Positions 1 through 34,056 of a stretch of DNA of 64,000 bases are shown piece by piece (the stretch's first letter is position 1; every line of letters begins with the position of its first letter). Origin of the DNA: Candidatus Gottesmanbacteria bacterium (GTDB lineage Bacteria; Patescibacteriota; Microgenomatia; UBA10105; UBA927); contig JAHFKN010000002.1 in assembly GCA_023245355.1 (NCBI GenBank), positions 72,460 through 136,459 on the forward strand. The letters run 5' to 3'. Under the pieces are notes generated by a model that saw only the letters and a list, made by a program, of their open reading frames with translations, searched no databases and had not been told where the DNA came from. The position numbers and the translations under genes were made by a program.

Positions 1-609
1 CTTACGCTTACCGTACATAAAGGTGAAAAAATAGGAATAATCGGCAGGAACGGCAGCGGAAAAACCACACTGCTTAAAATTATGGCCGGCATCACAGCGC
101 CTACCAGCGGTAGGGTACAGACCTATGGCAGAGTGGTCTCGCTTATTGATCTCGAAGCGGGATTTCATGCGGACCTTACCGGATATCAGAATATATATTT
201 AAACGGCATGCTGCTTGGAATGAGCCGCCGGGAAATCGAAGCCAAAATCAAAGACATTATCGCATTTGCCGACCTTAAACAATTCATTGACGCTCCGCTG
301 TTTACCTATTCAAGCGGCATGGCGCTGCGCCTCGGATTTGCCGTTGCCGTCCATGCGGAGCCGGATATTTTACTTCTGGATGAAAACCTCTCTGCGGGAG
401 ATGCCAATTTCAGAATAAAAGCCCGGCGCAAACTCCAGGAATTTTTTCGGGAAGAAAAAACGATCATTGTGGTCACACACTATCTGGACTTTATCGCGGA
501 GACGTGTGACCGGATCATACACATCAAAAACGGGGCGGTTGTACGTGACGGCGGACTCGAAATATTGTCCCAATACGATCCCGACTGGAAGCGGCCGCAA
601 AAGAAATAA
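1..609 (+). CDS. ABC transporter ATP-binding protein, polysaccharide/teichoic-acid export type (Wzt/TagH-like); 5' end is outside the window
   Basis: The reading frame is open from base 1. Walker A GRNGSGKTT, ABC signature LSAGD and Walker B ILLLDE are present, and the gene lies in a glycan locus. Confidence 0.8.
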   Translation, partial: LTLTVHKGEKIGIIGRNGSGKTTLLKIMAGITAPTSGRVQTYGRVVSLIDLEAGFHADLTGYQNIYLNGMLLGMSRREIEAKIKDIIAFADLKQFIDAPLFTYSSGMALRLGFAVAVHAEPDILLLDENLSAGDANFRIKARRKLQEFFREEKTIIVVTHYLDFIAETCDRIIHIKNGAVVRDGGLEILSQYDPDWKRPQKK

Positions 610-2004: not shown

Positions 2005-3370
2005 GTGCGTCCCGATGTTGATAATTTTCCGCCGCATGTATCCCGCTTTCCATTGCATGATCCATATTATTGTACTTATACATCCCGCCGCGCCCGATCA
2101 GAGTCACATTCGTAAACGTGCTTACGTATTCCTTTATTACGTCAAATGCCTTTTCGTACCCCAAGTAATATGCAGGATATGCATCTGCCTCACGGACTAC
2201 GAAACTTCCGACAAGCTTCTGGTCGGAAAGCAACCCTGCGGATGTAAGCTCGGAATATGCAAAGTGTTGAAGATAGGTATCGGTCTCATGCCACAATCGA
2301 TCTTCTTTAAAAACAAAATATTCGACGGAAAGCGCGTGAGTTTTCCGTAAAGACGCGTTCGGTTGGAAATTATTATAATTTGTTACCCTGGCCATTTGGA
2401 AATCAGGGGAATGGATATACAACCACTGATCGGGAAACGGACTCGCCCCGCGTACGAGCAGATTTACCGTAATATGGTCACGATACCGCAGGCGCCGTGC
2501 AGCAGCCAGAACCGTTTTAGGCGGGGCGGGGGAGAGGGCAGTGATAAATGCCGTAATCGGCATACTGGAAAACACATGTGCGGGGGTTTCCGTTACCCGT
2601 TTACCGTGCTTTATATAATCCACACGGATTATTTTTCTGTCTTTATGATGAATACCGGTGACATGGCTCTGATACCGGAACGTAACGCGCTCCTTTCCGA
2701 ATGTTTCTGCCATGCGGGTATACATCTGTCCGCTGCCCCGTACCGGATAATAAAACGATCGGACCAGACTTTTCGGATCGGCCGGCGGCCTGATATTGAA
2801 CGCTGCAAGAACAAGCGACACAACACTCAGATTTTGAATCCGTTGCACTGCCCATTTTGCGCTGATCCTGTCACAGGATACGCCCCATACTTTTTCTGTA
2901 TATGTCTTAAAAAAAATGGAGTAGAGCCTGTACCCGAAGCGTGCAGTAACCCACTGTGTAAACGTTTCGGCAGGCGGCCGGAACAAACGGAGTTTTGCCG
3001 CAAGATAACTGAAAACGCTCAATATCACATCTTTCGGTCCGAGTTTTTTCATCACATCCCACGCGTCGAGAGGGTACGAAAACAGCTTGCCGCCATACAG
3101 CACCCGGGTTAACCGATGTACCGGATGAAATCCCGCACCCAGGGTTTTTTTCCATAATGAATCTATGGCCGGATTTTTCGTATAAAACCTGTGCGGGCCG
3201 ACATCAAACCAATGACCCTGAAAAAAAACACTCCTCGCGAGACCGCCGGGATGGGTATTCCGGTCCAAAACGACAATATGCTGTTTCTCTTTTTCTTTTT
3301 GAAGGGTCAGGGCGCAGGAAAGGCCGGCAGGACCTGCTCCGATAATAACGATGCGACGCATGCTAGCCAT
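1955..3370 (-). CDS. FAD/NAD(P)-binding oxidoreductase (amine-oxidase/UDP-galactopyranose-mutase-like fold)
   Basis: The N-terminus has the dinucleotide-binding motif IVIIGAGPAGLSCA. The C-terminus has GRGGMYKYNNMDHAMESG, which resembles the UGM/amine-oxidase C-terminal motif. Confidence 0.6.
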   Translation of the reverse strand: MASMRRIVIIGAGPAGLSCALTLQKEKEKQHIVVLDRNTHPGGLARSVFFQGHWFDVGPHRFYTKNPAIDSLWKKTLGAGFHPVHRLTRVLYGGKLFSYPLDAWDVMKKLGPKDVILSVFSYLAAKLRLFRPPAETFTQWVTARFGYRLYSIFFKTYTEKVWGVSCDRISAKWAVQRIQNLSVVSLVLAAFNIRPPADPKSLVRSFYYPVRGSGQMYTRMAETFGKERVTFRYQSHVTGIHHKDRKIIRVDYIKHGKRVTETPAHVFSSMPITAFITALSPAPPKTVLAAARRLRYRDHITVNLLVRGASPFPDQWLYIHSPDFQMARVTNYNNFQPNASLRKTHALSVEYFVFKEDRLWHETDTYLQHFAYSELTSAGLLSDQKLVGSFVVREADAYPAYYLGYEKAFDVIKEYVSTFTNVTLIGRGGMYKYNNMDHAMESGIHAAENYQHRDAHDLWSINEDGKYLEEK

Positions 3371-3416: not shown

Positions 3417-4127
3417 ATGGGCACATCCGGGCGACTGATTGTCAGCTTCCATATCACAAAATGCGCCGGCCAATGGCTCGCCAAATCCATACGCGATAAT
3501 TACCCACCTAACGCCAGTACATTTCTTTATCAAACACGCCGCAACCCGTCGTACGAGTCTCTTCCGTTCCTCCGGGCATATTTTTTTTTCCTGCCGAAAG
3601 CCCTCCGGCAAACGCTCCGCATCATTCACGGACACGGCGCATTTTGGGGAATTCACGAATATTTTCCTGACCGGACAACAGAATACAGCGTCATGCTGCG
3701 CGAGCCGGTCGCACGGACTATTTCCCATTATTACTATTTCCGGAGGTCACCCGGAGCCCGCGATTCAAGAAAAAGCCTGTTTGATGAACACGGGAAGCTC
3801 AGAACGCTTTCTGACTGGGTGACCCATACGCCTTCGGCCCAGAATCACATGGTCCGGTTTCTGTATGCGCGCTTATTTCACCGGGAAATTGAAGGGAACG
3901 TCACCGAACGTGAATATCGTGAGACGCTGCGGCGTCTTAAATCTTTTGCATTCGTCGGCCACATTGACAGGCCGGGGGATAAAGAGAAATTATTAACGTT
4001 TCTTGATATAAAAAAACCGGCCCGGCCGGTTAACAAATCCGTTCGGCACTCCGTGCCGACCATAGCTGACCTAGAACGCATTCAAAAACTGAATGAATTC
4101 GACATAAAACTCTACGCGGAAACGTAA
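3417..4127 (+). CDS. sulfotransferase family protein
   Basis: A 5'-PSB-like motif FHITKCAGQ and a 3'-PB-like motif LREPVARTISHYYY (RDPxxRxxSxY) are present. The start is set at the MGTSG ATG after the divergent promoter. Confidence 0.55.
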   Translation: MGTSGRLIVSFHITKCAGQWLAKSIRDNYPPNASTFLYQTRRNPSYESLPFLRAYFFFLPKALRQTLRIIHGHGAFWGIHEYFPDRTTEYSVMLREPVARTISHYYYFRRSPGARDSRKSLFDEHGKLRTLSDWVTHTPSAQNHMVRFLYARLFHREIEGNVTEREYRETLRRLKSFAFVGHIDRPGDKEKLLTFLDIKKPARPVNKSVRHSVPTIADLERIQKLNEFDIKLYAET

Positions 4128-4154: not shown

Positions 4155-4253
4155 TTATGAGGCTACGGTAGCAAACGCGGTGAGCTCAATCTTCTCTGAA
4201 GTCTTTGCCGGTTTCTTGTATGACTTCTTGACTGGCGCTGTTATCTGTTTCAT
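4155..4253 (-). CDS. unannotated 32-aa ORF (MKQITAPVKKSYKKPAKTSEKIELTAFATVAS), candidate RiPP precursor peptide
   Basis: AGGAGG sits 7 nt upstream of the ATG, the best SD in the region. The ORF lies 36 nt downstream of the PqqD-like gene on the same strand and ends in Ser. It is absent from the ORF track because it is under 60 aa. Confidence 0.35.
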   Translation of the reverse strand: MKQITAPVKKSYKKPAKTSEKIELTAFATVAS

Positions 4254-4288
4254 AGATTTTCCTCCTACTTTTTATAGTAAGCATGCTC

Positions 4289-4585
4289 TTACCGATTGTC
4301 AACAACAAAAAGCTTTCCGCTGCCCGATTCTGATTGTATGAATGCGATGACATCTTTTTGTGCCTGCTTTACGGAAACATCATACGAAGAGGCTACCGCC
4401 GCAATAATAGCTGACACCTTCCTGGGACTCTTAAGAAACTCCCATATAAAACTACCGACGTCATTATACGTATGAAGGATCATATGGGAATCGTCAAAAA
4501 CGTAGAGCGTTTCACCTACAACCCTAGTCGCGGCCTCCGGATTCCTGCGGATTTTGGTTTCTTCCCGTACTGAGTCTTTCTTCAT
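4289..4585 (-). CDS. PqqD-family protein (RiPP recognition element, lasso B1-like)
   Basis: The 98-aa protein has the core LYVFDDSHMILHTYNDVGSFIWEFL...AIIAAVASSYDVSVKQAQKDVIAFIQ, which is typical of PqqD/RRE proteins. Confidence 0.7.
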   Translation of the reverse strand: MKKDSVREETKIRRNPEAATRVVGETLYVFDDSHMILHTYNDVGSFIWEFLKSPRKVSAIIAAVASSYDVSVKQAQKDVIAFIQSESGSGKLFVVDNR

Positions 4586-5433
4586 AATTTGGTAATCAGG
4601 GCAAGAAATTTTTTACTTCTGCTGAATTCCAGATTGTAATGCCGGTAAAATCTGGATGTAAATAATTTTATCCCAAGTGACAGAAGAAATAAATAGCGGG
4701 GGGAATACTCAATGAACTTGAGATTCGGCCGGAGATGCCGCTGTAGCCTCGACAGTGTTATTGACCTCGGAACAGGCACGAGCACATCCTGTTGTTGATC
4801 TGTATGACGCAGCCACAGGCATTTATCAAGCGGATATCTGCCCGTTACGGAAACCTGTATGTTCGGATCAAAGGGGTTTGCAATAACCGAATACCCGTTG
4901 TTCTCGGGGATAACAACGGTAATATCATCGGAAAGCTGCGGTGCCTGTGATAACCTCGCGATCGTCGATTTTCCGACGCCCTGCCTGCCGATAAATACAT
5001 ACGCGTTTTTCCCTATAACGACGGAGGACGCGTGCAACATAAATCCTCCCTGTTCCAGGATATGAAAAAAATACAGCATGGAAAATATCGGGTTCAGCCC
5101 CCGCGCAGTCGGTGCAATGCGGAACGCCCCTTTCCAGCTTTTGATGTTAATTTCTCCTTTTGCCGGCCGTTCCAGCCGAAGACTCAACATGTCACCCGTT
5201 TGACGCACTGCATTCGGTTCTTTCGTCAATGTTGAGTCGACGGTAATATCCAGATACATATGGCTTGTAACAGTAGCGTTGCTCTTGGGAGGCTCGAAAC
5301 TCTTTACTACTGCATAGAACGCGTCGGACGACCCGCGGAGCATCACGTGGATACAAAGATTATCAGCAATAATCGAAAAACGGCGGATATCAGACATACC
5401 GGTGTAAATATGTAATAATCTTTTTTTCCGCAT
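4582..5433 (-). CDS. HPr kinase/phosphorylase C-terminal-domain-like protein (putative peptide Ser kinase)
   Basis: It has the P-loop GRQGVGKST in an HprK-like context. GAGGA precedes the ATG at 5433, and there is a 4-nt overlap with the PqqD gene. Confidence 0.55.
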   Translation of the reverse strand: MRKKRLLHIYTGMSDIRRFSIIADNLCIHVMLRGSSDAFYAVVKSFEPPKSNATVTSHMYLDITVDSTLTKEPNAVRQTGDMLSLRLERPAKGEINIKSWKGAFRIAPTARGLNPIFSMLYFFHILEQGGFMLHASSVVIGKNAYVFIGRQGVGKSTIARLSQAPQLSDDITVVIPENNGYSVIANPFDPNIQVSVTGRYPLDKCLWLRHTDQQQDVLVPVPRSITLSRLQRHLRPNLKFIEYSPRYLFLLSLGIKLFTSRFYRHYNLEFSRSKKFLALITKL

Positions 5434-6376
5434 CCGTCCTCAGCCGGCGCAACAATAATTCACCCGATGCATTCATGTTCCGATACGGTCTGACGGAAAT
5501 GCCGACCGCATCAAATAGTGTATTCATAGATTTTGTCCGGGATCCGTTCATAAGCTGATACGTAAGGAGACGCAAATGAAATGAAGTAAACGCGCGAATC
5601 ATCCGCTCCGTGAGGACTCCAACTGTAGGTTGTGAATGCCTGACACGAATTGTATCAAGGGACTCTCCCCAATACAATTCGCCGGTCATATAGGCATCAA
5701 AGTGTTCTTCCAGCCGGCGCGGGGATATAGTGACCGATATATCGGTTCTCCGTATCCTAAATCCCATATGGTTCAGCCTGACGCTGAATTCCATGTCGTC
5801 GTTATAGCGAAGCACGGTAGCCCCCAATTGTATGCCGCCGCTTTGCCTGTAGGCACGGCGCGTAACCGCATAAAACGGTCCCTGGAATATCTCCGGCCGC
5901 CATCCCCGGGTTGCCTGCGACAATCGTTTCCGCCGTCCGACCAGCGTCGTGTACATAGTGCGTTTTTTGGTACTCCACCCGGTATATATGTCCCAGGGGA
6001 ATACAAAGGATCCGTATATGCCGTCCGTTTTCGGCTTGTTGATCTCATTCCATACGTCATGGACAAACGCAGGGGACACCCGGGAATCCGCATCCAATTT
6101 AACAAGCACACGGCTATCAAGCGCTGCTTCAAAACCATGCTTTGTTGCCTCTGCAATCCCGCGTACAGGTTCATGCAGCAGGAGATAGGGAAGCGCTAAT
6201 TTCCGGCACCACTCCGTAACCGAACGAACTGTACGGTCACGGGATCCGTTATCGACAATCACCAAACGGAACGGGGGGTGCGGTTTATGCTGCACGACAA
6301 ACTGTCGTAACATTTCACCGATAATCGGTTCTTCATTCAGAACAGGCACGATAAGTGAAATCGGATATGGTGTCAT
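5390..6376 (-). CDS. glycosyltransferase family 2
   Basis: The N-terminus SLIVPVLNEEP...LVIVDNGSRDRT is characteristic of GT-A family 2. Confidence 0.7.
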   Translation of the reverse strand: MTPYPISLIVPVLNEEPIIGEMLRQFVVQHKPHPPFRLVIVDNGSRDRTVRSVTEWCRKLALPYLLLHEPVRGIAEATKHGFEAALDSRVLVKLDADSRVSPAFVHDVWNEINKPKTDGIYGSFVFPWDIYTGWSTKKRTMYTTLVGRRKRLSQATRGWRPEIFQGPFYAVTRRAYRQSGGIQLGATVLRYNDDMEFSVRLNHMGFRIRRTDISVTISPRRLEEHFDAYMTGELYWGESLDTIRVRHSQPTVGVLTERMIRAFTSFHLRLLTYQLMNGSRTKSMNTLFDAVGISVRPYRNMNASGELLLRRLRTDAEKKIITYLHRYV

Positions 6377-6379
6377 AAC

Positions 6380-7294
6380 CTATGAACTCTTCGGCTTATA
6401 CGGTGTGACGCGCCAGCGCATCGAAGTTATATCGGTATCCTGCAGATGGTGTTTTGTGCCATACGGTGCACGATACCAGTGACCGACATACGCATCCGTA
6501 AGATTATTCTTTTGTGTATCTTCAAGCCGGGAATTGTCGATAGCGCGGGAAACGGACCGTCTGCTTTGTAACACCGAATCCCTGCCTCCTGCCACGACGA
6601 CGATATTCTGCACACGCGCGGCATCTTCGGGATGCTGCGGAAATACCCGTACGAATGCAAAATAGGTTCTGAGAATCGCCGCAGTTGATCGCCAAAGCCA
6701 TGCCCCTTTTCCTGTTATGGGACCGATATGATTTATGACAAGATATCCGTCGGTACGAAGTATGGTCGCTATTTTTTGAAATGACTCCGTTGTATACGTG
6801 GAAAGCTCCTGAGATGAAAGCATCCCGGGAAATAGCACCGATCCGGAATCCGCATCCGGCCAGTACAGGTTCCCCATGGTGATATCTACAAATATCAAAT
6901 CGAAATGGCGCGTTGTACGGAGGCGGTTTACGTCATCACGTGCAAACCGGCATATGACCTCCATATTTTTGCGGAACCCATGCCTGTGTTTCCGTATAAC
7001 ATCAATAACCACATCATCCGCTTCCACTACCCGTACCAGGCACTCAGGGTATGTTGCCGCAAAATAGTCCGAGCAAACAAATGCGCCGCCTCCCAGATGA
7101 AGAATGCGGGACGGGGGAGCTCCCAATTCGGCTATCTTTGTATAAATTTTATAATCCCGCCGCTGCATGTCTCCGTCCGCACCCGCACCGGAAGAAATAA
7201 TCCCGCCGCTGTGTGTGTCCAGACGGAATTCCGAAAAAAATCTGGTATGCCCGAAAAACACTGTTGTTAATTTGTTATGTAATTTCATGATCAT
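6380..7294 (-). CDS. spermidine-synthase-like (PABS fold) class I methyltransferase-fold protein
   Basis: Motifs ILHLGGGAF, VVEADDVVIDVIRKH and FDLIFVDI are present. Confidence 0.45.
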   Translation of the reverse strand: MIMKLHNKLTTVFFGHTRFFSEFRLDTHSGGIISSGAGADGDMQRRDYKIYTKIAELGAPPSRILHLGGGAFVCSDYFAATYPECLVRVVEADDVVIDVIRKHRHGFRKNMEVICRFARDDVNRLRTTRHFDLIFVDITMGNLYWPDADSGSVLFPGMLSSQELSTYTTESFQKIATILRTDGYLVINHIGPITGKGAWLWRSTAAILRTYFAFVRVFPQHPEDAARVQNIVVVAGGRDSVLQSRRSVSRAIDNSRLEDTQKNNLTDAYVGHWYRAPYGTKHHLQDTDITSMRWRVTPYKPKSS

Positions 7295-7953
7295 GCCAAT
7301 CTGTGTATACGGCGGATTTCATCCGTATGCCGGTCAATAAGTTTCCGCACATACTCAGGCCCGAATTTCAAAAGATAATGTGCTGATGAAAACGGGGGGA
7401 CCGAAGGATCGTTCCAATCACTGAAAATAAGCCGGATTCCCGCTGCTTTAAACTCTCTCTCGTTAAGATAGGAGTGTGCCCCCATGCCGGAAATAAATAC
7501 GGTGGCTCCCACAAAATGACATATTTCAATAATACGGGCGACACGATCCTTACTTTTCACCGTAATGTCGCTGCTCCGCAAAAAATTCCTTCTGATGGAT
7601 AACGAATGCAAAATCCATTCCGACATGGCGATATTGAGAGCAGATAAATTCTGCCACGGCCTGCCGTAGATTTCGTCCGGAATTTTTCCGTACGCCATGC
7701 GCAGCGTACTTACGTGTTTTTTCCGCCAATGATCACCGCTTATGCTGACATCCTTTATTTTCTGTCCGTATTTGTAGCGCACCGGAACGGTAAGCCATTG
7801 CCAGGAGTCACCTGACTGTATACGGTTCCTGTTTTGGAACCCGTCCTTTTCGTATTGGACATCATCATAAAAAATATGCGTATCGGAAAGCGCAATTTTT
7901 GCGATATGGCCAAGATACGGCAGGTACTCCGGCTGATGCATGGAAAGTATCAT
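7291..7953 (-). CDS. WbqC-like family protein
   Basis: The N-terminus MHQPEYLPYLGHIAKIALSDTHIFYDDVQYEKDGFQNRNRI matches the WbqC family (PF08889). Confidence 0.6.
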   Translation of the reverse strand: MILSMHQPEYLPYLGHIAKIALSDTHIFYDDVQYEKDGFQNRNRIQSGDSWQWLTVPVRYKYGQKIKDVSISGDHWRKKHVSTLRMAYGKIPDEIYGRPWQNLSALNIAMSEWILHSLSIRRNFLRSSDITVKSKDRVARIIEICHFVGATVFISGMGAHSYLNEREFKAAGIRLIFSDWNDPSVPPFSSAHYLLKFGPEYVRKLIDRHTDEIRRIHRLA

Positions 7954-8975
7954 ACTGTTATATGTGCCGCCTCAGAAAACATTGACTCCCACTCCCGCGC
8001 AATAGTTACCCAGTCATAATAGGATACAGACTGTCTGTTATGCCGGTCGATCCGCATGCGCAGCACCGGATTATTCAGCAGATTCACGGCTGCGTTTACA
8101 AATTTCTTTCTGTAAACCGGAGAGCCGGGTGTTCCCGTAATCAACACGTTCCCCCGGGCAGTTTCCGGCAGTGCTCCCCGGGCAGATGTCACAATGGCGA
8201 CACCTGCCGCACGCGCTTCCAGCACCGTCATGCTGCTCGTCTCCAATTCCGTGTTCGGATACAACAGCACCCCCGCACGAAGCATTGCTTTTGCCAGCTC
8301 CTTCTTCGGAAGAAGAGGGGCGACGGTTACCCCGGGAAGCTGTTTCAGATCAGAAAGAATCCGCTCTGCTTTTTTCGAAACGGCTTCACCATAAAGCGCC
8401 CGGGAGGCAATAACCATGAATGTCGAGTCGGGTACCCTGGCATGAATCTGTTTCCAAATTCCGGACAGATATTCCAGACCATCCCCGTGACCGGACACAT
8501 ACAGACATGAACGCGGATTTTTCTTCGTTTTTCCCTGATACAACAGACTCCTGACTCCGTTTCTGGATATGAAAATTTTTCCTTTAGGAATACCTAGTTG
8601 CCCGTATAATCCCGCCTGAAATTCCGAAATGGCAATCACACGATAGACTGCACGGATAAACCGCCGGAGAGTGACAGGGTGTGTCAGCGGAATAAAAGAC
8701 GGCTCTGTTATTAAGTCGGGAGACCAAAAAAACGTGCAGGGCGCAATCGACGGGTACAGAAGTACGATTGCAGGATTTCGTTTCACCACAAGCATATCTG
8801 CACGGGGCGCTGATCTGAGCTCATCGGGGTGCGTATATAAACGGACGTCATGACCCAACAGACGAAGTGCGTACACCATCTCCAGAACAGCAGTCTCTGT
8901 ACCGGGAAGCGGTGAAGCATCCGGTTTCACATCCCTGTAGGTAATCGGGCTACGGTAGTAGATCGCTATTTTCAT
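7950..8975 (-). CDS. glycosyltransferase family 1 (GT4)
   Basis: The C-terminal motif ETSSMTVLEARAAGVAIVTS is GT-B retaining GT4-like. Confidence 0.7.
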   Translation of the reverse strand: MKIAIYYRSPITYRDVKPDASPLPGTETAVLEMVYALRLLGHDVRLYTHPDELRSAPRADMLVVKRNPAIVLLYPSIAPCTFFWSPDLITEPSFIPLTHPVTLRRFIRAVYRVIAISEFQAGLYGQLGIPKGKIFISRNGVRSLLYQGKTKKNPRSCLYVSGHGDGLEYLSGIWKQIHARVPDSTFMVIASRALYGEAVSKKAERILSDLKQLPGVTVAPLLPKKELAKAMLRAGVLLYPNTELETSSMTVLEARAAGVAIVTSARGALPETARGNVLITGTPGSPVYRKKFVNAAVNLLNNPVLRMRIDRHNRQSVSYYDWVTIAREWESMFSEAAHITV

Positions 8976-9633
8976 ATGCGGATGCAGTACGGCCGGGGAG
9001 CAGGCTGCCTATTTTGGAAAGCAGGGATTTGATTTTATATTTCCACGGATAAAAATCCACCAGGTGGGAAATGAATACGGGTTTCTCCGAACGTTTCATG
9101 ATAATGACCATGTTTGGCATATCTATCGGTACAAACACATAGTCGGTCCGGTTTTTCCGTATCCAGGATAAAACAAACTGGGTAGATTCATACGTGGCGT
9201 CATGAAATACTATATATCCGTTCGTTTCGAGCATCAGGTCAGAAAAATAAAAATCCAGGAAAATCTCATCAAACCTGTGCCCGCCGTCAATAAAAATAAA
9301 TTGAAATGTTTCACCCGCTTTTGAAAGGGCGGGGAGCACGAAGTGCGAATAATCCCCGTAAAACGTGAGGCGCGTACGGAATCCGAGCCGGTCAAGGTTA
9401 AATAATCCCAAATACCGGTACCGCTTTTGAAACGGGTCGATTACTCTGTGACGAGCTCCCGTCGCGTGCATGATATACGCTGCGGAATATCCGAACCCGA
9501 GTCCTATTTCCAGCGTTTTTTTGACAGCATGCTTTGTGATGAAGTCGTGCAGGAATTCCGCTTCATTTCCTGCGATAGAAGAAATACGGTATTGTTTCGG
9601 AATAACGATGGTTTGTTCAATGAATGGAATCAT
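8950..9633 (-). CDS. class I SAM-dependent methyltransferase (CmcI/TylF-like)
   Basis: Motifs LEIGLGFGYSAAY and FIFIDGGHRFDE are present. Confidence 0.55.
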   Translation of the reverse strand: MIPFIEQTIVIPKQYRISSIAGNEAEFLHDFITKHAVKKTLEIGLGFGYSAAYIMHATGARHRVIDPFQKRYRYLGLFNLDRLGFRTRLTFYGDYSHFVLPALSKAGETFQFIFIDGGHRFDEIFLDFYFSDLMLETNGYIVFHDATYESTQFVLSWIRKNRTDYVFVPIDMPNMVIIMKRSEKPVFISHLVDFYPWKYKIKSLLSKIGSLLPGRTASAYENSDLLP

Positions 9634-9636
9634 ACG

Positions 9637-10113
9637 CTACCTGCCTGACACTGCCTTGCCCAGTTTATCTATGAGCGCAAACATCCACCCCCGGCATAGA
9701 TAATACATCCGCATCCGGTCCGCATACCTTTTCCCGTATGCATCCTCAAGTGTTATCACGCTTCCGATGATAGCCGGTCTTGCAATCGGTGCATCGAGCT
9801 TTCGCGCATTGTCACCCATAAGATACCACCTATCCTGCCTTCTGGCGATGAGGCGGTGCATATAGAACAACCCGCTGCTGTAACAGAGCAACAAATCTCC
9901 CGGCTTGGGAACGGTTGTTACCGGTCGCACCACAACAAAATTGCCGGCGCGGGCTGTCGGATACATGCTCCCTGAAATAATTCTGATCCGTGCCGGGCCT
10001 TTCGACCGGATAAACCCGATCATTGCCTTCGCGGCTTTCCCTTTTATCGTTGCTGTTTCCATACGTACAAAGCCGCCCGTCACATTCCGAGAGCTGCCCT
10101 TCCCATGAACCAT
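9637..10113 (-). CDS. S26-family signal peptidase I-like serine peptidase (SipW/TraF-like)
   Basis: It has box B SGSMYPT, KPGDLLL and box E MGDNARKLD. Confidence 0.6.
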   Translation of the reverse strand: MVHGKGSSRNVTGGFVRMETATIKGKAAKAMIGFIRSKGPARIRIISGSMYPTARAGNFVVVRPVTTVPKPGDLLLCYSSGLFYMHRLIARRQDRWYLMGDNARKLDAPIARPAIIGSVITLEDAYGKRYADRMRMYYLCRGWMFALIDKLGKAVSGR

Positions 10114-11222
10114 ATGATTTTGGGCCGGAGGAGCCGCCCATGCGGAACCAAATCACGGAGTAGTGTATCCAAAATGCCGATATCAGTAAATACGCGCTGT
10201 GCCCATTTGTTACGTGCATGATGCCATGCCTCCATCGATACACGCACCACAATAAAATGACGCAGAAAAAAATTCAGGTACGTACGAAAAGCCGGCGACA
10301 GCCCGAACAGCGCACGGACGGAAGAGGGAAGGGAAATCTTATAAAATACTGACCCCGCTTCTGCGATAAAAGAAAACAGTGTATACCACTGATATTCATT
10401 CAATAGGGCATAAAGCCGTCTGCGGTCCGCCGGACTCAGGGCCAGCAGGGAATGTACAATCTGATAGAGCGTATGCATGCCGAATCCCAAATCGTTGTAC
10501 CAAAAGCTTACCGCCAAATAGAACACATAATACGGAGGATCGGATACGCGCTTGCTACTTTCTTCATGTGTATATACGAGCATGTCGTGCGTTAATCGCT
10601 TTATCATGGTCATACGTTCATAAGACATGTCGCCGAAATGGGGATGCGCTACAAGCGTATGAATATCTATCCGGATACCGGAATGCGGGTTAGAAACGGT
10701 GCACTCCTTTGGCGGATATCGTTTCAGTGTATACCCCCGCTTTACATACCGGCGTACCAGCCCGTCACAGGCGCTGCCGGAAACAAGAACGTCAATATCC
10801 GAACTCACGTTTTCCCGGGAAAGAAAACCAGGGTGAAACGGACTGGTTTTATAAAAAACGGCGGTATACCGTCCGCGTCCGATGACTGATACAAGCGTCC
10901 GCAGCTCTTTGAGCTTTTTCCGGCAGTCTGACATCGCCGTAAATTCCGCTCCCATAAGCTGCTTCATAAATGAGTCGGATATATGACGCCGGCAGAATAC
11001 ACAATGAATATAATGAAACACGTTTCCGTATGCTTTGTTATAACTTGCAAGCCACAACAGCTCATGTTCCTGCTGCAGGGAAAGCTGGGGGATGTGCGGG
11101 CAAGCGCGTGATTCCGTGCTTACGATAGTCTCCCTCAGAACTGAGACGGTATCATTTCCGTCAATTGTATATGACTGTTTCATGGAATGTGATCCGCCGG
11201 AGTATAATCGATTACGTTTCAA
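10080..11222 (-). CDS. nucleotidyltransferase-fold protein (PF14907-like)
   Basis: It contains G[FS]...(x12)...SDIDVLV, a minimal NTase signature. This family co-occurs with HprK, PqqD and sulfotransferase genes in RiPP loci. Confidence 0.45.
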   Translation of the reverse strand: MKRNRLYSGGSHSMKQSYTIDGNDTVSVLRETIVSTESRACPHIPQLSLQQEHELLWLASYNKAYGNVFHYIHCVFCRRHISDSFMKQLMGAEFTAMSDCRKKLKELRTLVSVIGRGRYTAVFYKTSPFHPGFLSRENVSSDIDVLVSGSACDGLVRRYVKRGYTLKRYPPKECTVSNPHSGIRIDIHTLVAHPHFGDMSYERMTMIKRLTHDMLVYTHEESSKRVSDPPYYVFYLAVSFWYNDLGFGMHTLYQIVHSLLALSPADRRRLYALLNEYQWYTLFSFIAEAGSVFYKISLPSSVRALFGLSPAFRTYLNFFLRHFIVVRVSMEAWHHARNKWAQRVFTDIGILDTLLRDLVPHGRLLRPKIIWFMGRAALGM

Positions 11223-17712: not shown

Positions 17713-18489
17713 TCATGACTTCGCCGCAAGAACCTCTTTAGCGGCAAGATATAAAAAATATATATTTTGGACTGTATATCTATACCAAAGACGCCGGGGC
17801 TCCTGAAGCAACCGGAACAACCACTCAAACCCTGAGCGTTGTACCCATCGGGGGGCCTGGCGCCGGGTTCCGGCAACAAAATCAAACGCCGCGCCTACCC
17901 CAATATAGACATTGGCATGTGCCATATGTATATGGGCATGCATCCACATCTCCTGCTTCGGCGTGCTTAACCCCACAAATACGACGTGCGGCTTCGCAGT
18001 CCTGATACGTTCCGTAATATGCTTGTCTTCTTCAGGAGTCAATTGACGGAACGGGGGAGCGTACGCTCCGCAAATAATAAGGCGGGGAAACCGAAGGTGC
18101 AAATGCATCGTTAGCGCCGTTAATGTTTCCTGCGTCGTTCCGTATAGATAGATTCTCCATCTTTTTTTCTGAGCTTCATCGCATGACGCGATAAACAAAT
18201 CCGGACCATAAATCCGCTGCGTTTTCGGAAACCCAAGCCACCTGCTTATCCACACAAGCGGCATGCCATCAGGAACGACGAGTGCCGCTTCCGCATGTGC
18301 ACGGAACACCAAAGGATTACGGCGCGATTCCACTACGCCGTGCGCTCCGGTAACGCAGATATACGCGTGTTCTTTTCGTGATATCCACCCCGCTATTTGC
18401 TGTACAACCCCGGAAATAGATCCCGAAAAAAATTTAAGCCCGAACATGTTACATACGTTCATACCATGCATAATGATACTATGACGCAC
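17713..18489 (-). CDS. WecB/TagA/CpsF family glycosyltransferase (GT26)
   Basis: The C-terminus has LSTPKQEMWM and GVGAAFDFVAG, the GT26 signature. Confidence 0.7.
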   Translation of the reverse strand: MRHSIIMHGMNVCNMFGLKFFSGSISGVVQQIAGWISRKEHAYICVTGAHGVVESRRNPLVFRAHAEAALVVPDGMPLVWISRWLGFPKTQRIYGPDLFIASCDEAQKKRWRIYLYGTTQETLTALTMHLHLRFPRLIICGAYAPPFRQLTPEEDKHITERIRTAKPHVVFVGLSTPKQEMWMHAHIHMAHANVYIGVGAAFDFVAGTRRQAPRWVQRSGFEWLFRLLQEPRRLWYRYTVQNIYFLYLAAKEVLAAKS

Positions 18490-18556
18490 TTTTGACTGCT
18501 AAAGTCATTTCTCAAATCAAATTTCGGGTTGTCTGCTTCCGCTACGTACAGTCAGA

Positions 18557-19558
18557 TTAGTTCCCGCATTGCATCATCTTTAAATCCGAAAGATATCGAA
18601 ACGTGTATTCCGCAATCAGCTCATGACCTTTTGCATTCGGGTGTCCGTCAGGCAACCCTCCCTCTGACTCATAAATATTCGGCAAGCCGCCGTATATCCA
18701 TGTATTTTCACGGTTGCTGGTCCAGTATTTCAGCTTCGCCATGTCCCGGGAGGGGAGATACGAAAATGTCGTAATAAGAACAGGGACTTGTTCGCGTGTT
18801 TCAAAAAAATCCATCCATGACGCATATACCTGTTCAAAAACGGAGTCTTCACTATATTGTTTTTTCATCTGACGCACTGCTTTATCCAGAGCGGGATCTG
18901 TATTAGGCCGGGCGCTAACCATGGCTTTTTCCTCATCGGTTAACTGTTCGGTCGTTTGCGCCACCATGGGATCAAGAACTTCTTTAATCCTGTTAAATCC
19001 TGACCCTGATTCGTGCCATATGATGAGGTCCGGATTATATTTTTTCCCCCTGCTTTTATACCGATACGCAATGTACTGTGCATCATACCCCCGTTCTCCG
19101 AGATTGATTACCTCGTACCGCCGGCCATCCTGACAGGGCGGAGAAGCATTTAGCATATCCTCAAGTCTTTCCGTCCAGTTGTCTTTCGTGTTTACATAGT
19201 GCCCGAAGGTAAATGAATCGCCCAGTGCGATTATCCGGTAGGTATTTTGGGGCTTGTCCACCATGTATTCATATCGCTCATTTAACGTGTCACTGTTAAT
19301 CGTATAGACTGCCGTATAGTCCAGCCATTCCGGTCGTTCTTCCTCTGTTGTATTTGGCTTCGGTTCATAATAGTATTTCAGCGGAGAATCTACCGGGAAT
19401 ATAAGATACTCTCTCCGTAAAGGCGCTATTGTCGTCGCTCCCAAAACATTCAGCCGGAATTTTGCCGTATAAAGAGAGACTACCATCATTACAATGACGC
19501 AAATCTCCGCAAAAATACAGAAAAAAATAAGAGCACCCGGAATCATTGATCTCTTCAT
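18557..19558 (-). CDS. membrane-anchored SGNH/GDSL-like hydrolase
   Basis: There is an N-terminal TM helix followed by IIALGDSFTFGHYV. Confidence 0.5.
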   Translation of the reverse strand: MKRSMIPGALIFFCIFAEICVIVMMVVSLYTAKFRLNVLGATTIAPLRREYLIFPVDSPLKYYYEPKPNTTEEERPEWLDYTAVYTINSDTLNERYEYMVDKPQNTYRIIALGDSFTFGHYVNTKDNWTERLEDMLNASPPCQDGRRYEVINLGERGYDAQYIAYRYKSRGKKYNPDLIIWHESGSGFNRIKEVLDPMVAQTTEQLTDEEKAMVSARPNTDPALDKAVRQMKKQYSEDSVFEQVYASWMDFFETREQVPVLITTFSYLPSRDMAKLKYWTSNRENTWIYGGLPNIYESEGGLPDGHPNAKGHELIAEYTFRYLSDLKMMQCGN

Positions 19559-19650
19559 ACAAAAAACGATCATCGTACAATACCTCATCCATCGTCGTTT
19601 CAGACGTCCACTTGAACACGCAAAAGAAATACTAAAGAATACGTATCTAT

Positions 19651-20652
19651 ATGGCAACAGGGGGGCTGGCCTATTTAGCTAAACACAAAGCGGGAGCGAT
19701 TATTATTATCGAGGTGATCGTTATCGTGTTTATAGGCATTACTATTATAAACAAAAAATCACGTTCAGCCGTTTTGGACGCTGTCACGACATCGCCGATT
19801 CGCAAAGAATACCTTATCTTTCCCGAACAATCTGCACTCAAGTACTTTTATGAACTTAAGCCTGCTTCCGTGCAGACGGAGCACCCGGATTGGTTGCCGT
19901 ACGAGGCAACATACACATTTAACGCTGACGGCCTGAACGAACGGTATGACTATCCGATCACCAAACCCGCAGATACATTTCGAATTATTACCCTGGGTGA
20001 TTCATTTACCTTCGGGCACTATGTAAACACGAAAGACAACTGGACGGAAAAACTTGAAGATGACCTAAACGCTTCGTGCAAATCGTCTATGAAATATGAA
20101 GTAATTAATTTGGGTGTTTATGGATATGACATGCAATACTCTTTGGAGCGCTATCGGCTGCGGGGTGCAAAATATCAACCTGATTTCGTTATATGGCTTC
20201 TTCTCGGTGAGCGCATGAACGAACTCATGCGTCCGACCATAGACACGCTGGAGCGTACCATGACAGAGGTGGAAAAAAACCGTGCCCGAAAAAAAGGGGA
20301 CTACTCTCCCGAATGGACAGCTGCATTGCAGCAAATGATGCAACAATACACACCAAAACAAAGACTGGAACAGGAACGCGCCTTTATGCTCTCGTTTGAT
20401 GCTCTGTATAAAGGCCCGTTGCTATTTATGGTCCCGCCTGCGGTCGGTTTTGATTATAAAGCGCGGATAAAACTTCACTCGGCTGAGCGTCCCGACACAT
20501 ATTTCACCTCTCAACTCCCGGACCTCTCCCTCTCCGGAGGTCTGCTGCCTGACGGCCACCCAAACACATCGGGGCATGCGTCATACGCACATTTCCTGCG
20601 CACATACCTGAGCCGCATGAAACTGATACCGTGTACCCCGAACGTGAACTAA
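19651..20652 (+). CDS. membrane-anchored SGNH/GDSL-like hydrolase (divergent paralog)
   Basis: There is an N-terminal TM helix followed by IITLGDSFTFGHYVNTKDNWTEKLED, which is about 45% identical to the minus-strand neighbour. Confidence 0.5.
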   Translation: MATGGLAYLAKHKAGAIIIIEVIVIVFIGITIINKKSRSAVLDAVTTSPIRKEYLIFPEQSALKYFYELKPASVQTEHPDWLPYEATYTFNADGLNERYDYPITKPADTFRIITLGDSFTFGHYVNTKDNWTEKLEDDLNASCKSSMKYEVINLGVYGYDMQYSLERYRLRGAKYQPDFVIWLLLGERMNELMRPTIDTLERTMTEVEKNRARKKGDYSPEWTAALQQMMQQYTPKQRLEQERAFMLSFDALYKGPLLFMVPPAVGFDYKARIKLHSAERPDTYFTSQLPDLSLSGGLLPDGHPNTSGHASYAHFLRTYLSRMKLIPCTPNVN

Positions 20653-22340
20653 CGTTTCGTTACCACAAGATTATTGAGAACTAATATGTCCATCCGTGAA
20701 TGCACGAAATCCTCAATGGCCTGTCGTGGGTGTTCGACAATCGGCTCTCCCATAACGTTAAAACTCGTATTGAGAATACAGGGGACACCGGTAAGGCGGT
20801 AATATTCTTTGATGAGCCGGTAATATCTGCCGTTATCTATGTTTACGGTCTGAATTCTGCAGGTATTATCTGCATGCACGATAGCAGCCAACTCATTCCG
20901 CTTTTTTTCCCGGACAACCAGACAGACATTCATGAACGGAGAGTAGTATTTCTTTTCCGGTGTATAAAAATACTCATGCACATGTTCCTGCAAGATGGAT
21001 CCTGCAAACGGCCGGAACTCTTCCCTGCGTTTTATTTTATTCATGTTGTCCTTCATAATCCGCGGGCTTGGCTTCGACAGAATCGAGCGCGCACCGAGCG
21101 CTCTCGGACCGAATTCCGTTTTTCCCCAAAACCACCCCACGATCTTTCCCTTTGAAAGTAGTGCCGCCACCTCCTGAATAAGGTCCTGCTCGGCGTCATA
21201 TATCCTGTACCGCAATCCCGGATATGTTTTCAGAACTGATTCCGCGCTTTCGTTACTGTACGACGAACCCGTATACAGTGAAGTTATCGGGGCGTTAACT
21301 TCCTTTTTTTGACCGTGCCGCATACCATAGAGTGCGGCACCCAGCGCCGCTCCGCTGTCGCCTGCAGCCCCTAAAATATGAACGTGTTTAAACGGTGTTC
21401 GCGTGTAAATTTTCCCGTTAGCCAGCGCATTGAGTGCCACACCTCCGCTCATACAAAGATTTGTCGTGTGCGTCAGGGAAAAAAGATGATGCAGCATCGC
21501 AAACAACAATTCTTCAACAACCTTCTGAATGCTGGCGGCAATATCTTTATGGCGTTGCTCAATTTTCCCGCCCGGTATTCGGGGCTGACCTAAAAGAGAA
21601 ATAAATTTGTCATTGAACATGCGGAATCCTTCGCGGAACGAAAAATACTCCATGTTAAGCCGGAAACTACCGTCGGGCTTCACCCGTATAAGGTGGTAGA
21701 TATCTTCAACATATTCCGGTGATCCGTATGCTGACAGTCCCATCACTTTATATTCGTCTTCATTCACTTTAAATCCCAAATACGCGGTAAAGGTAGAGTA
21801 GAGAAGACCGATGGAATGGGGAAAGTCTATGCGTGCAAGCGGTGACAGCGTCCCCCCGTCACCCTTCCATAACCCTGTGGTCTGATATTCACCGACGCCG
21901 TCGATCGTAAGAATTGCGGCGGTCTTAAAAAGAGAAGAATAATATGCCGCCGATGCATGACTCAGATGATGGGAAACAAAATATATGCGCTTCGTAAACC
22001 CGACATTTTTGCGGATAATATCCTCCACGTTTATTTTTTGCCCGAGCCAATCGGGAATTGCCTGCAAAAACGGCTTGAGTGCGAACGGATATGTTTCGAC
22101 GAATGTTTCCAGTAGCCGTTCAAATTTTCTGAGAGGCTTTTCATAATACGCCACGGCATCTATGTCATCGATAGTCAACCCCACGGAATCCAGACAATAT
22201 TGTATCGCCTTAAACGGGAACTGGTTGTCGTGTTTTACCCTGGAGAACCGTTCCTCTTCTATGGCGGATATCAGTTTCCCGTCAATAAAAAGTGCGGCTG
22301 CGCTGTCATGATAAAAAGAGGAAACGCCGAGAATTTTCAT
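20649..22340 (-). CDS. carbamoyltransferase (NodU/CmcH family)
   Basis: The N-terminus MKILGVSSFYHDSAAALFIDGKLISAIEEERFSR is diagnostic for this family. Confidence 0.8.
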   Translation of the reverse strand: MKILGVSSFYHDSAAALFIDGKLISAIEEERFSRVKHDNQFPFKAIQYCLDSVGLTIDDIDAVAYYEKPLRKFERLLETFVETYPFALKPFLQAIPDWLGQKINVEDIIRKNVGFTKRIYFVSHHLSHASAAYYSSLFKTAAILTIDGVGEYQTTGLWKGDGGTLSPLARIDFPHSIGLLYSTFTAYLGFKVNEDEYKVMGLSAYGSPEYVEDIYHLIRVKPDGSFRLNMEYFSFREGFRMFNDKFISLLGQPRIPGGKIEQRHKDIAASIQKVVEELLFAMLHHLFSLTHTTNLCMSGGVALNALANGKIYTRTPFKHVHILGAAGDSGAALGAALYGMRHGQKKEVNAPITSLYTGSSYSNESAESVLKTYPGLRYRIYDAEQDLIQEVAALLSKGKIVGWFWGKTEFGPRALGARSILSKPSPRIMKDNMNKIKRREEFRPFAGSILQEHVHEYFYTPEKKYYSPFMNVCLVVREKKRNELAAIVHADNTCRIQTVNIDNGRYYRLIKEYYRLTGVPCILNTSFNVMGEPIVEHPRQAIEDFVHSRMDILVLNNLVVTKR

Positions 22341-22342
22341 GA

Positions 22343-22531
22343 TTAATATGCGGAAAATACATCATCCGGAATCCGTCGTTTCGTCTCATATACCCAATAT
22401 GAATCCTTCTTTGTCTCTTTCGGTGCGCTGAACATGTATATAAGCCGGGCCAAACCGACACCAATACCGTAGACACCTATCAGTACAAAAGAGATGAACC
22501 ATGCGTTTAGCCGCTTGAAAAGCGCGATCAT
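22343..22531 (-). CDS. small single-TM membrane protein
   Basis: The 62-aa product has one TM helix. It is the ATG-initiated C-terminal part of the implausible 135-aa tracked ORF and has an ATGA overlap with the next small ORF. Confidence 0.3.
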   Translation of the reverse strand: MIALFKRLNAWFISFVLIGVYGIGVGLARLIYMFSAPKETKKDSYWVYETKRRIPDDVFSAY

Positions 22532-22680
22532 AATATGGGGTACAAAAATACCGGCAGGGGAGAAATCTGCGCACTTATAATGAGGAGTGCAACAATAACA
22601 ATAAACAGTATGATAGGGATCATCCACATTTTTTTGGATTTGCCTGCAAGTGATATGAGCTGTTTTAACGATGAAAACAT
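22528..22680 (-). CDS. small membrane protein (50 aa)
   Basis: MFSSLKQLISLAGKSKKMWMIPIILFIVIVALLIISAQISPLPVFLYPIL is hydrophobic. It lies between a GT2 gene and the next small membrane ORF. Confidence 0.25.
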   Translation of the reverse strand: MFSSLKQLISLAGKSKKMWMIPIILFIVIVALLIISAQISPLPVFLYPIL

Positions 22681-22706
22681 AATGAAAGTATAGTATCCAA
22701 TTCTGT

Positions 22707-23717
22707 TTAGGCGCGCAATAGACGCCGGATAAATACGCGCATCCGGTCAAAAAATTTCACCGGCTGCTTTGATACCTCCTTCGCCGACTGCAAAAACCAC
22801 GTGTGCATCTCCTGTTTGGAAATATACGGCGAAGAACGGGCGCGTAACGCAGAATAGGATGATCTGATCATCTTCCGCAAAATTCCAAGTCCCACGGCAG
22901 GTGTTATGACAATACGCAAAATAATGTGGAGCCATATACGCGGCAGGTTATAAACAATCAAATCGGAAATATACGCATTTTTCAGTATGCAGAGAAAACG
23001 GTTTGCCAACACCTCTGCCTCAAGAGAACGGGGGAACATGCCTCCCGGGTGACTGATCACGGCAGCCGGTTCATACCAACAACGCAGACCATGAAGCTGC
23101 CCTCTCCAATCGATATCAACATCTTCATAATACATGAATAGCTCCGGATCAAAAAAATTTCCGTTCACGGAAAGCGTGCGGACCATCGAACCGCGGTATA
23201 GTGCGGCCGCGCCTGGGGCTCCGAATACTTCTCTTGGTGCAGAAAACTGCCCGCGGTCAACAATTCCATATCCGATATTAAACGCGTATCCATCCCGCTG
23301 CAGTGCATGTCCCACGCTATAAAGAACCCGTGTGCCCGTATTCTTATACAATTTTCCGGTGACCCAGGAGGCTGAATGTTTTTTACTGGCACGGACAAGG
23401 TGCGCAAAACAATCCGGCTCCGGCAACGCATCAGGATTTAACGCGACGTAATAATCATTATCACGAAGGCGCAGGGAACGGAGGATGGCGTTATGTCCTC
23501 CTCCGAAACCCAGATTTACCCGGCTTCGTATAAATACCGCCCTTTTGGGGTATCGTTTCATAACACTGACGATGGAATCGGAAGAATTATTGTCCAGCAC
23601 GACTACATGGATATCCACGCTGCGCTGATGAAAAATGGCAGACAAACAGCGCGCGATAAGCACTGCGCTGTTATACGTCACGATACCCACATATACCCGG
23701 GGGAAGCGGCGATTCAT
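22707..23717 (-). CDS. glycosyltransferase family 2
   Basis: VGIVTYNSAV...VVVLDNNSSD is present. The start at 23717 makes an ATGA overlap and is preceded by GGAGGAG. Confidence 0.7.
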   Translation of the reverse strand: MNRRFPRVYVGIVTYNSAVLIARCLSAIFHQRSVDIHVVVLDNNSSDSIVSVMKRYPKRAVFIRSRVNLGFGGGHNAILRSLRLRDNDYYVALNPDALPEPDCFAHLVRASKKHSASWVTGKLYKNTGTRVLYSVGHALQRDGYAFNIGYGIVDRGQFSAPREVFGAPGAAALYRGSMVRTLSVNGNFFDPELFMYYEDVDIDWRGQLHGLRCWYEPAAVISHPGGMFPRSLEAEVLANRFLCILKNAYISDLIVYNLPRIWLHIILRIVITPAVGLGILRKMIRSSYSALRARSSPYISKQEMHTWFLQSAKEVSKQPVKFFDRMRVFIRRLLRA

Positions 23718-25986: not shown

Positions 25987-26068
25987 TATTGTCGGATAAT
26001 ACCCGCTCAGATATAATCTATCGGTAACACGGCGGGCGCCGTTATATATGCCGATACATATCCGCTGC

Positions 26069-33872: not shown

Positions 33873-34056
33873 TAAGGTTTTCCACTTATGCACCGCGCAC
33901 ACAAAGTTATCCACATGCTTTTCCACTTTCTTCTTTTGATTTTGCCGGTACTTATCCACAACTCAAACAGACTATTTGTCTTGTCATTGACACACAAATC
34001 AAAAAACCATACACTTTTCCACGCCTAATTCTTATTACTACTGCTGGTATACCTAT
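33873..34056 (+). promoter_or_regulatory. oriC-like region between dnaA and dnaN: 2 perfect TTATCCACA boxes plus 3 TTTTCCAC(T/G) variants, AT-rich tracts
   Basis: The boxes are at 33907-33915 and 33952-33960, with variants near 33878, 33919 and 34016, all in the same orientation. Confidence 0.55.

Follow-up and report, generated by a model that had tools for sequence, protein, structure and literature searches.

A conserved 32-residue peptide gene beside a PqqD-like gene as the probable precursor gene of a kinase-containing, cyclase-less peptide pathway in a Patescibacteria-type genome

Does a short open reading frame (ORF) that directly follows the gene of a PqqD-like recognition protein encode a substrate peptide and, if so, of which kind of pathway? 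The ORF lies on the minus strand, at 4155..4253 of the 64,000-nucleotide (nt) stretch of Candidatus Gottesmanbacteria contig JAHFKN010000002.1 analyzed here (the window), and its 32-residue translation is MKQITAPVKKSYKKPAKTSEKIELTAFATVAS, followed by a stop codon. An earlier reading made from the DNA alone (the sequence-only reading) had singled it out as an unannotated candidate precursor ending in Ser. We now consider it probable, at about two in three, that the encoded peptide is the ribosomal substrate (precursor) of a pathway for peptides made on the ribosome and modified after translation (RiPPs), a pathway that resembles the one of the linear polyphosphorylated peptides (LPPs). Most plausibly, the peptide is the substrate of a kinase-containing, cyclase-less system and is recognized by a RiPP recognition element (RRE).

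The ORF itself, its AGGAGG Shine-Dalgarno (SD) sequence 7 nt ahead of the ATG (4261..4266, minus strand) and its co-directionality with the PqqD gene were all confirmed in the sequence. The peptide gene stands directly downstream of the PqqD gene as described, with a short spacer of 35 nt rather than 36 nt. The SD had been presented as exceptional, and a perfect SD is indeed rare in the window, as AGGAGG-N4-10-ATG occurs only 4 times in 64 kb; against a chance expectation of 2.0 ± 1.4, however, the SD alone is not above chance. The description as unannotated largely held: a gene call for the ORF exists in one assembly of the same organism, whereas its counterparts were uncalled in all six homologous loci, that is, in 6 of 7 loci overall.

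Related loci were retrieved via homologues of the neighboring kinase and PqqD proteins, and not via the peptide. In five of them an in-frame homologue of the peptide follows the PqqD gene directly: MKQATTPVKKSYKKPAKTSEKIELTAFATVAS in L005 (kinase 87% identical to that of the window), MKKNTKSVKKIYKKPAKTSEKIVLTAYATV in L007 (kinase 46% identical), MRKSQKRQIKKTPYQKPSKKAEKIELTAFATT in L009 (Candidatus Chisholmbacteria, kinase 36% identical), MKNTNKKEYAQPSKTSEKIELTAFAST in L019 (PqqD 42% identical), and MKKTEPKAKKPYTRPAKTSEKIELTAFASV in L020 (PqqD 49% identical). The sixth, the distant homologue MAKKARKTKTPKKRYVKPSLKVEKFVASFYAEW of L024 (679-780, plus strand), has a canonical YxxPxL motif and was left uncalled by the gene caller; it heads an operon of the order YdjC-GT2-kinase-PqqD-GT2 (GT2, family-2 glycosyltransferase), which ATP-grasp and PIG-L genes adjoin. 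The seven peptides are 27-33 amino acids (aa) long, and their C-terminus lies 18-20 residues past the Tyr; the distance in L024 is the same as in most, and that in the window and L005 is two residues longer. For the window peptide and those behind the PqqD genes, the conserved block is YxxP[AS]Kx[SA]EKIxLTA[FY]A[ST][VT]. The identity of the block was 74-89%, although the kinases were only about 30-46% identical. Over its 19 codons, differences were distributed among the three codon positions as 52:41:168, and codon differences were synonymous in 134 cases and non-synonymous in 65. For the window against L007, the corresponding numbers were 13 and 2.

The sequence-only reading had named missing conservation beside PqqD and HprK homologues, or a conservation pattern independent of frame, as signs against its proposal. 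Instead, five other lineages carry in-frame homologues behind the PqqD gene, and frame-independent conservation was not seen. Because the conservation is frame-dependent, with a third-position bias across lineages, the ORF is, on comparative sequence grounds, a real translated gene under purifying selection. We give next to no weight to a chance ORF, or to a non-coding element such as a terminator or untranslated region between convergent genes. The ORF is short, its AGGAGG-ATG could have arisen by chance, and a weak hairpin spans the stop codon, but the codon pattern persists among loci with strongly diverged kinases, the hairpin is not significant (z = -1.2), and an Rfam scan of the whole window returned no match. 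The codon-position pattern rules out the terminator or non-coding reading of the ORF.

Expression signals were recurrent as well. Strong SD sequences precede the peptide gene in 5 of 6 genes (window, L005, L007, L009 and L020). A promoter-like element, TTGACA-17-TACTAT (4274..4302, minus strand), overlaps the last PqqD codons, and in 6 of 7 loci a TTGAC[AT]-N16-19-TAnnnT match lies 5' of the peptide gene. Because of this overlapping element, which like those of the other loci is a consensus match only, the sequence suggests that the peptide gene has its own promoter.

With the peptide itself as query, phmmer found only the self-match among 1.84 billion representative proteins, neither Pfam nor NCBIfam contained a matching family, and a PDB search with the peptide profile gave no match. 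A genome scan with the kinase profile detected a single close relative, L009, a Patescibacteria/Microgenomates-group metagenome-assembled genome (MAG). The five other kinase-profile matches (L010-L014) were rejected as relatives; they were remote P-loop matches without the peptide motif. The L009 peptide is identical in three Joint Genome Institute (JGI) metagenome contigs (L016-18). In the JGI metagenomes, a degenerate DNA pattern of the conserved block found three Chisholmbacteria copies of the peptide and one chance match in a large ORF, and the same pattern had 0 matches in viral contigs.

Which pathway the peptide may serve is indicated by the other genes of its operon. It is the last gene of a ten-gene minus-strand operon running from 11183 to 4155, in the order N-S-MT-GT1-WbqC-MT-GT2-K-B-A, where N is a nucleotidyltransferase, S a signal-peptidase-like protease, MT a methyltransferase-like protein, GT1 a group-1 glycosyltransferase, K the kinase, B the PqqD-like RRE and A the peptide. 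Overlaps or gaps between the genes are 8 nt or less, apart from the 35-nt spacer ahead of the peptide gene. BLASTP identified orthologues of N, S, GT1, WbqC, the spermidine-synthase-like protein (the second MT), GT2, K and B, in unchanged order, in L022, L016, L019 and L007. The signal-peptidase-like, NTP-transferase and glycosyltransferase genes of this operon had been missed by the sequence-only reading, and it is these genes that define the system.

The closest known counterpart is the LPP family, defined in Bacillota by the genes lppA-K-B-S-D-N (Popov et al., Nat Commun 2026; PMC13381572). In this set, LppS is a signal peptidase I (SpI)-like peptidase, LppB a discrete RRE, LppK an HprK-like kinase and LppN an NTP-transferase; an MsbA-like exporter belongs to it as well, and its clusters are cyclase-free and lie inside capsule loci (PMC13381572). 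LPP precursors of 35-200 aa carry the pattern YxxPxVLxHQxIxFET|xxS, in which YxxP is essential for binding. LppS cuts after T-1, and only with LppB presenting the peptide; in Paenibacillus alginolyticus, LppK polyphosphorylates core Ser3, i.e., Ser+3 of F-E-T|x-x-S (PMC13381572). LPPs have been reported as restricted to Bacillota, and a supplementary table of the same paper contains non-Bacillota SpI+RRE pairs whose RREs are classed apart from LPP RREs (PMC13381572). The window operon holds counterparts of four of the five LPP core functions, namely peptidase, RRE, HprK-like kinase and, as a tentative assignment, NTP_transf_5-like transferase. It likewise has no cyclase and no B2 protein, and polysaccharide genes lie all around it.

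The discrete RRE (98 aa, 4289..4585, minus strand) is a PqqD-like, lppB-like chaperone that matched Pfam PqqD at 3.6e-12 and NCBIfam lasso_PqqD_Bac at 1.1e-8. Its profile matched TbiB1, PbaB1 and LppB (9x8z, 2.5e-4) in the PDB, and the protein is no closer to LppB than to the B1 proteins of lasso peptide clusters. Residues Y68, D78 and F82 align to the Tyr-pocket residues Y60, D70 and F74 of LppB, by which the leader Tyr is held in the LppB crystal structure. The adjacent lppK-like kinase (271 aa, 4582..5397, minus strand) is a P-loop protein of the ScmC family (PF27840; TIGR04249, 7e-4) with an HprK-like/phosphoenolpyruvate carboxykinase (PEPCK) fold. Its Walker motif GRQGVGKST is invariant, and distant members of the family also match Hpr_kinase_C. 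An AlphaFold2 (AF2) model built from a 32-sequence alignment had a predicted local distance difference test score (pLDDT) of 93; an earlier model from a 4-sequence alignment (pLDDT 50) was discarded. Foldseek matched the better model to ATP-dependent PEPCK at about 7e-8 and to the HPr kinase/phosphatase catalytic domain at about 4e-4. We take this to be the known PEPCK/HprK P-loop kinase fold.

The putative leader peptidase (9637..10113, minus strand) is an archaeal-type SpI-like (S24/S26), lppS-like protease. It aligns with LppS, and its catalytic triad is conserved, with Ser in SGSMYP, His in MHRL and Asp in MGDN. Its best BLAST matches fall into SpI clusters 3 and 4 of Popov et al., which are linked to RREs and mostly non-Bacillota. 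The first gene of the operon (10080..11183, minus strand) encodes a putative NTP_transf_5-like nucleotidyltransferase resembling lppN and psmN. Its orthologue in L022 is 27% identical over 352 aa, and no NTP_transf_5 gene was seen in the gene table of the Chisholmbacteria operon.

The peptide has a basic N-terminus, a Y12-K-K-P15 motif of the RRE-binding type and the conserved block E20-K-I-x-L-T25-A-F-A-T29-V. The basic N-terminus with KKxYxxP and an F-x-T element near the putative cleavage site recall LPP precursors in part, and the xxS that completes this element occurs in the window and L005 only. We propose that B, in which the Tyr-pocket residues of LppB are retained, binds the peptide through Y12-x-x-P15. 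The kinase would then phosphorylate a Ser or Thr of the C-terminal region, either T25 (Thr in six peptides, Ser in L024) or T/S29, which are the conserved hydroxyl residues, or, in the window alone, also S32. The NTP-transferase and the glycosyl- and methyltransferases of the operon, possibly together with a sulfotransferase-like protein, may extend or decorate the phosphate. S would remove the leader from the B-presented peptide, with candidate sites after A26 or T29, and an ABC-2 (Wzm/Wzt-type) transporter would export the product. The mature product would thus be very small, 1 to 6 residues with a phospho-glycan, as compared with the 45-aa cores of Bacillota LPPs.

Two registers are conceivable for such a cleavage. 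In the first, F27-A-T29 / V-A-S32 would mimic F-E-T / x-x-S with S32 as the acceptor, a Ser found in the window and L005 only. In the second, T25 would occupy position -2, giving the lasso-like spacing Y-15, P-12, T-2, cleavage after A26 and a core [FY]-A-[ST]-[VT]; the PbaA register is W-15, P-12. Core position 3 of this second register is Ser or Thr in six of the seven peptides, which parallels Ser3 of the LPPs. As the second register is conserved across lineages, the alignment modestly favors it.

The choice of register also bears on the earlier proposal that the C-terminal Ser is a phospho-acceptor like that of paeninodin, with the side chain of Ser32 (poly)phosphorylated by the HprK homologue and Ser32 as the defining residue. 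In lasso clusters, HprK homologues phosphorylate the C-terminal Ser on the linear precursor (PMC8498205), and F27-A-T29|V-A-S32 matches the LPP pattern F-E-T|x-x-S, whose Ser+3 is the mapped phospho-site (PMC13381572). The A31-S32 extension is nonetheless confined to the window lineage: no peptides but those of the window and its 87% relative have the ending -AS, and the other five end in ...ATV, ...ATT, ...AST, ...ASV and ...AEW. The kinases that accompany these homologues without a terminal Ser are orthologous all the same. Because other lineages end in V, T or W, the terminal Ser is not supported as the key residue, and this part of the sequence-only reading fell to the status of a lineage-specific two-residue extension; we regard a paeninodin-style use of Ser32 as unlikely.

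Several observations weigh against an LPP-like precursor. A hidden Markov model (HMM) of seven LppA leaders aligned only the KKxYxxP part of the peptides and left the register undecided, and the hydrophobic position of the LPP PxV/L element is a conserved Lys here. The "core" has 6 residues or fewer and shows the same degree of conservation as the "leader", an atypical feature for a RiPP, and at the T/S29 position the distant peptide of L024 carries Glu. Among the enzymes, the top structural matches of the kinase are PEPCKs and not HprK; the peptidase matched TIGR02228 sigpep_I_arch (1.7e-5) and Pfam Peptidase_S24 (1.2e-4) below the cut-off; and the NTP_transf_5 matches of the window protein (5.5e-4) and of its L022 orthologue (2.3e-6) both stayed below the Pfam gathering score of 31.2. 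Finally, the orthologous N-S-GT1-WbqC-x-GT2-K-B operon of L022/L023 has no recognizable peptide gene after the RRE or elsewhere on the 11.8 kb examined. A GDSL-like gene directly follows the PqqD gene there (L022:10837-11215, and L023), and the precursor of this operon may be unlinked or lost.

Differences from the Bacillota clusters themselves are also evident. The sole named relative is a Patescibacteria/Microgenomates-group MAG, whereas LPPs have been reported in Bacillota only, and the window peptidase is nearer to the uncharacterized SpI clusters 3 and 4. The precursors of 27-33 aa with at most 6 core residues contrast with LPP precursors and their long, variable C-terminal cores. P-[AS]-K replaces P-x-V-L, and the spacing from P to F is 2 residues longer here. 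The candidate exporter is of the ABC-2 type rather than MsbA-like: gene tables spanning about 43 kb contained no MsbA-like exporter and had ABC-2 (Wzm/Wzt-type) pairs instead. A candidate in the window is the 3' part of a Wzt-like ABC ATPase gene (1..609, plus strand), with an ABC-2 permease partner just beyond the window, and pairs of ABC_tran and ABC2_membrane genes flank the L007 and L016 loci too. A related arrangement is found in OGV92686.1 of a Microgenomates group bacterium (PMC13381572, Supplementary Data 1), in which a Wzt-like ABC ATPase is fused to an SpI-like peptidase with an RRE adjacent; through this fusion, ABC-2 export and leader cleavage are tied together in candidate-phyla bacteria.

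A further difference from LPP clusters is that the operon itself includes interleaved genes for GT1, WbqC, methyltransferase and GT2. The GT2 gene (5390..6376, minus strand; Pfam Glycos_transf_2, 1.1e-19) lies directly 5' of the kinase gene in all related loci; its orthologues in L022, L016, L019 and L007 are 34-39% identical, and the window protein weakly matches MftF-like models. Next to it are a spermidine-synthase-like protein with a class I methyltransferase fold (6380..7294, minus strand; NCBIfam MFS_SpdSyn, 8e-8), whose orthologues are 33-41% identical and in L016 match Pfam Spermine_synth, and a WbqC-like protein (7291..7941, minus strand; Pfam WbqC, 9.5e-50), with orthologues of 50-57% identity in all related loci. 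They are followed by a GT1 of the GT4 type assigned by Pfam (7950..8975, minus strand; orthologues 41-50% identical) and a Methyltransf_24/O-methyltransferase-like protein (8950..9633, minus strand; Pfam Methyltransf_24, 1.2e-10), which occurs at this position in the window only.

It is possible, though we would not expect it, that the peptide is a core-less "leader" on which the lasso/LPP recognition module of RRE, kinase and signal-peptidase-like protease builds and releases a phospho-glycan or a glycoconjugate of 1-4 residues, with exit of the product through a Wzm/Wzt-type ABC-2 transporter. Slightly less probable still is a scaffold or primer peptide, in which the kinase, NTP-transferase and glycosyltransferases of the operon build a phospho-sugar or glycan on the peptide as a handle; the signal-peptidase-like protease would then release it for export through the Wzm/Wzt-type ABC-2 transporter. 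With the same low probability, RiPP recognition machinery would then have been recruited for the synthesis of a surface glycan or small glycoconjugate. Such a scaffold is consistent with an operon, conserved across lineages, in which genes for GT1, WbqC, methyltransferase and GT2 stand among K, B, A, S and N, with the ABC-2 exporters flanking the loci, and with the Microgenomates fusion of a Wzt-like ABC ATPase and an SpI-like peptidase beside an RRE (PMC13381572). It also agrees with the restriction of variation within the conserved block to the last 1-4 residues, the sole variable part, and with the location of LPP and paeninodin clusters in capsule loci. This evidence, however, comes entirely from context, WbqC and the spermidine-synthase-like protein have no known chemistry, and the glycan genes could be mere neighbors in a large glycan island, as the window carries many more of them.

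The near absence of a core would also fit a stand-alone leader that acts as a cofactor, where the peptide stays unmodified, folds the RRE or makes it soluble, and brings K and S together, or activates them, on a different substrate. In favor of this, LppB needs its cognate peptide to be soluble and PbaB1 takes up its fold upon peptide binding, conservation reaches the last residue of the peptide, and one orthologous operon has no adjacent peptide gene. Natural core-less leaders are without known precedent, however, Ser/Thr residues close to the C-terminus are conserved, and a strong SD with an own promoter-like element is typical of a stoichiometric substrate; we therefore consider a cofactor role improbable, clearly more so than the scaffold, and retain the LPP-like precursor as the preferred reading.

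Other known RiPP systems share only parts of this arrangement. In lasso clusters, an HprK homologue and an NTP-transferase phosphorylate and then glycosylate the C-terminal Ser of precursors (PMC8498205, PMC6993621). The likeness to paeninodin and pseudomycoidin extends to an HprK-like kinase acting on the linear precursor, an NTP-transferase adding a hexose to the phosphate, a sulfotransferase gene in some clusters and a B1-type RRE that binds [Y/W]xxP. The peptide would also share the lasso register Y-15, P-12, T-2 if T25 is at -2. In contrast, neither an Asn-synthetase-like macrolactam synthetase (C), the lasso cyclase, nor a transglutaminase-like B2 gene was present in the neighborhood Pfam tables, which cover about 1-38.7 kb of the window. 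Lasso cores have about 15-25 aa with Asp/Glu at positions 7-9, whereas here no plausible leader end leaves more than 6 residues after it and there is no Asp/Glu ring acceptor. The judgment of the sequence-only reading that this is a cyclase-less, kinase-associated precursor and not a lasso peptide is thus borne out by the missing cyclase and B2 genes, the short tail and the conservation beside PqqD and HprK-like genes.

The kinase belongs to the ScmC family of SynChlorMet clusters, and its similarity to ScmC is only weak, as is that of the RRE to ScmD, which is PqqD-like. Unlike in those clusters, radical S-adenosylmethionine (SAM)/SPASM enzymes (ScmE/ScmF) are missing here, with no radical SAM domain in the locus gene tables, and the peptide is not Cys-rich. 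A locus that looks like a SynChlorMet-type RiPP locus by its gene content was encountered separately in L026, a distant ScmC locus, where a 59-aa Cys-rich peptide (MKQKYIRPVIKKEN...CSCWNNWKCDGLCS; 2401-2580, minus strand) with a YxxPxI motif adjoins ScmC-family kinase-like and radical-SAM genes. Mycofactocin, pyrroloquinoline quinone (PQQ) and pearlin offer no more than functional analogies: a short RRE-bound peptide whose last residues give rise to a small product and, for mycofactocin, glycosylation by a GT2 (MftF). They differ in that no radical SAM or PEARL enzyme is found here and the predicted chemistry is phosphorylation and glycosylation.

If the peptide is an LPP-like precursor, the locus extends the LPP-type enzyme set beyond Bacillota, to Patescibacteria-type genomes. 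The enzyme set is already known; of interest here are the near-coreless precursor, the spread beyond Bacillota and the operonic coupling to glycosyltransferases and an ABC-2 exporter. The locus couples the kinase, RRE, peptidase and NTP-transferase, within a single conserved operon, to WbqC, a methyltransferase-fold protein and two glycosyltransferases, and so provides candidates for the late steps of LPP biosynthesis. A precursor of about 30 residues with 1-6 "core" residues is a minimal and synthetically accessible substrate for the study of recognition by HprK-like RiPP kinases and SpI-like peptidases. Similar systems are probably under-counted, because gene callers missed the peptide in 6 of 7 loci. 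Were the core-less possibility true, it would mean ribosomal-peptide-primed synthesis of a surface glycan or small molecule in candidate-phyla bacteria, and would give a pointer to the final product and the role of LPPs and paeninodins in capsule loci.

On the other side of the peptide gene lies a convergent, tentatively sulfotransferase-like gene (236 aa, 3417..4127, plus strand), which adjoins the peptide gene also in L005 and L007. The window protein had no match in Pfam, and its L007 orthologue, 47% identical, weakly matched Sulfotransfer_1. Within the 3' end of this gene, about 125 nt beyond the peptide stop codon, a GC hairpin with a T-run (4015-4031, minus strand) is, by its sequence, a possible terminator of the operon.

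The remainder of the first 38.7 kb or so of the window is a glycan-synthesis island followed by dnaA and dnaN. These two genes (32508-35163, plus strand) lie about 28 kb from the peptide locus, with an M23 peptidase gene and a TraG-like P-loop gene after them, and the glycan island thus adjoins the likely replication origin. A second glycan module (17713-30338) comprises WecG, GDSL-like genes, a carbamoyltransferase, two GT2 and two Wzy_C-domain genes, together with a second ABC_tran/ABC2_membrane pair, a GT1 and a methyltransferase.

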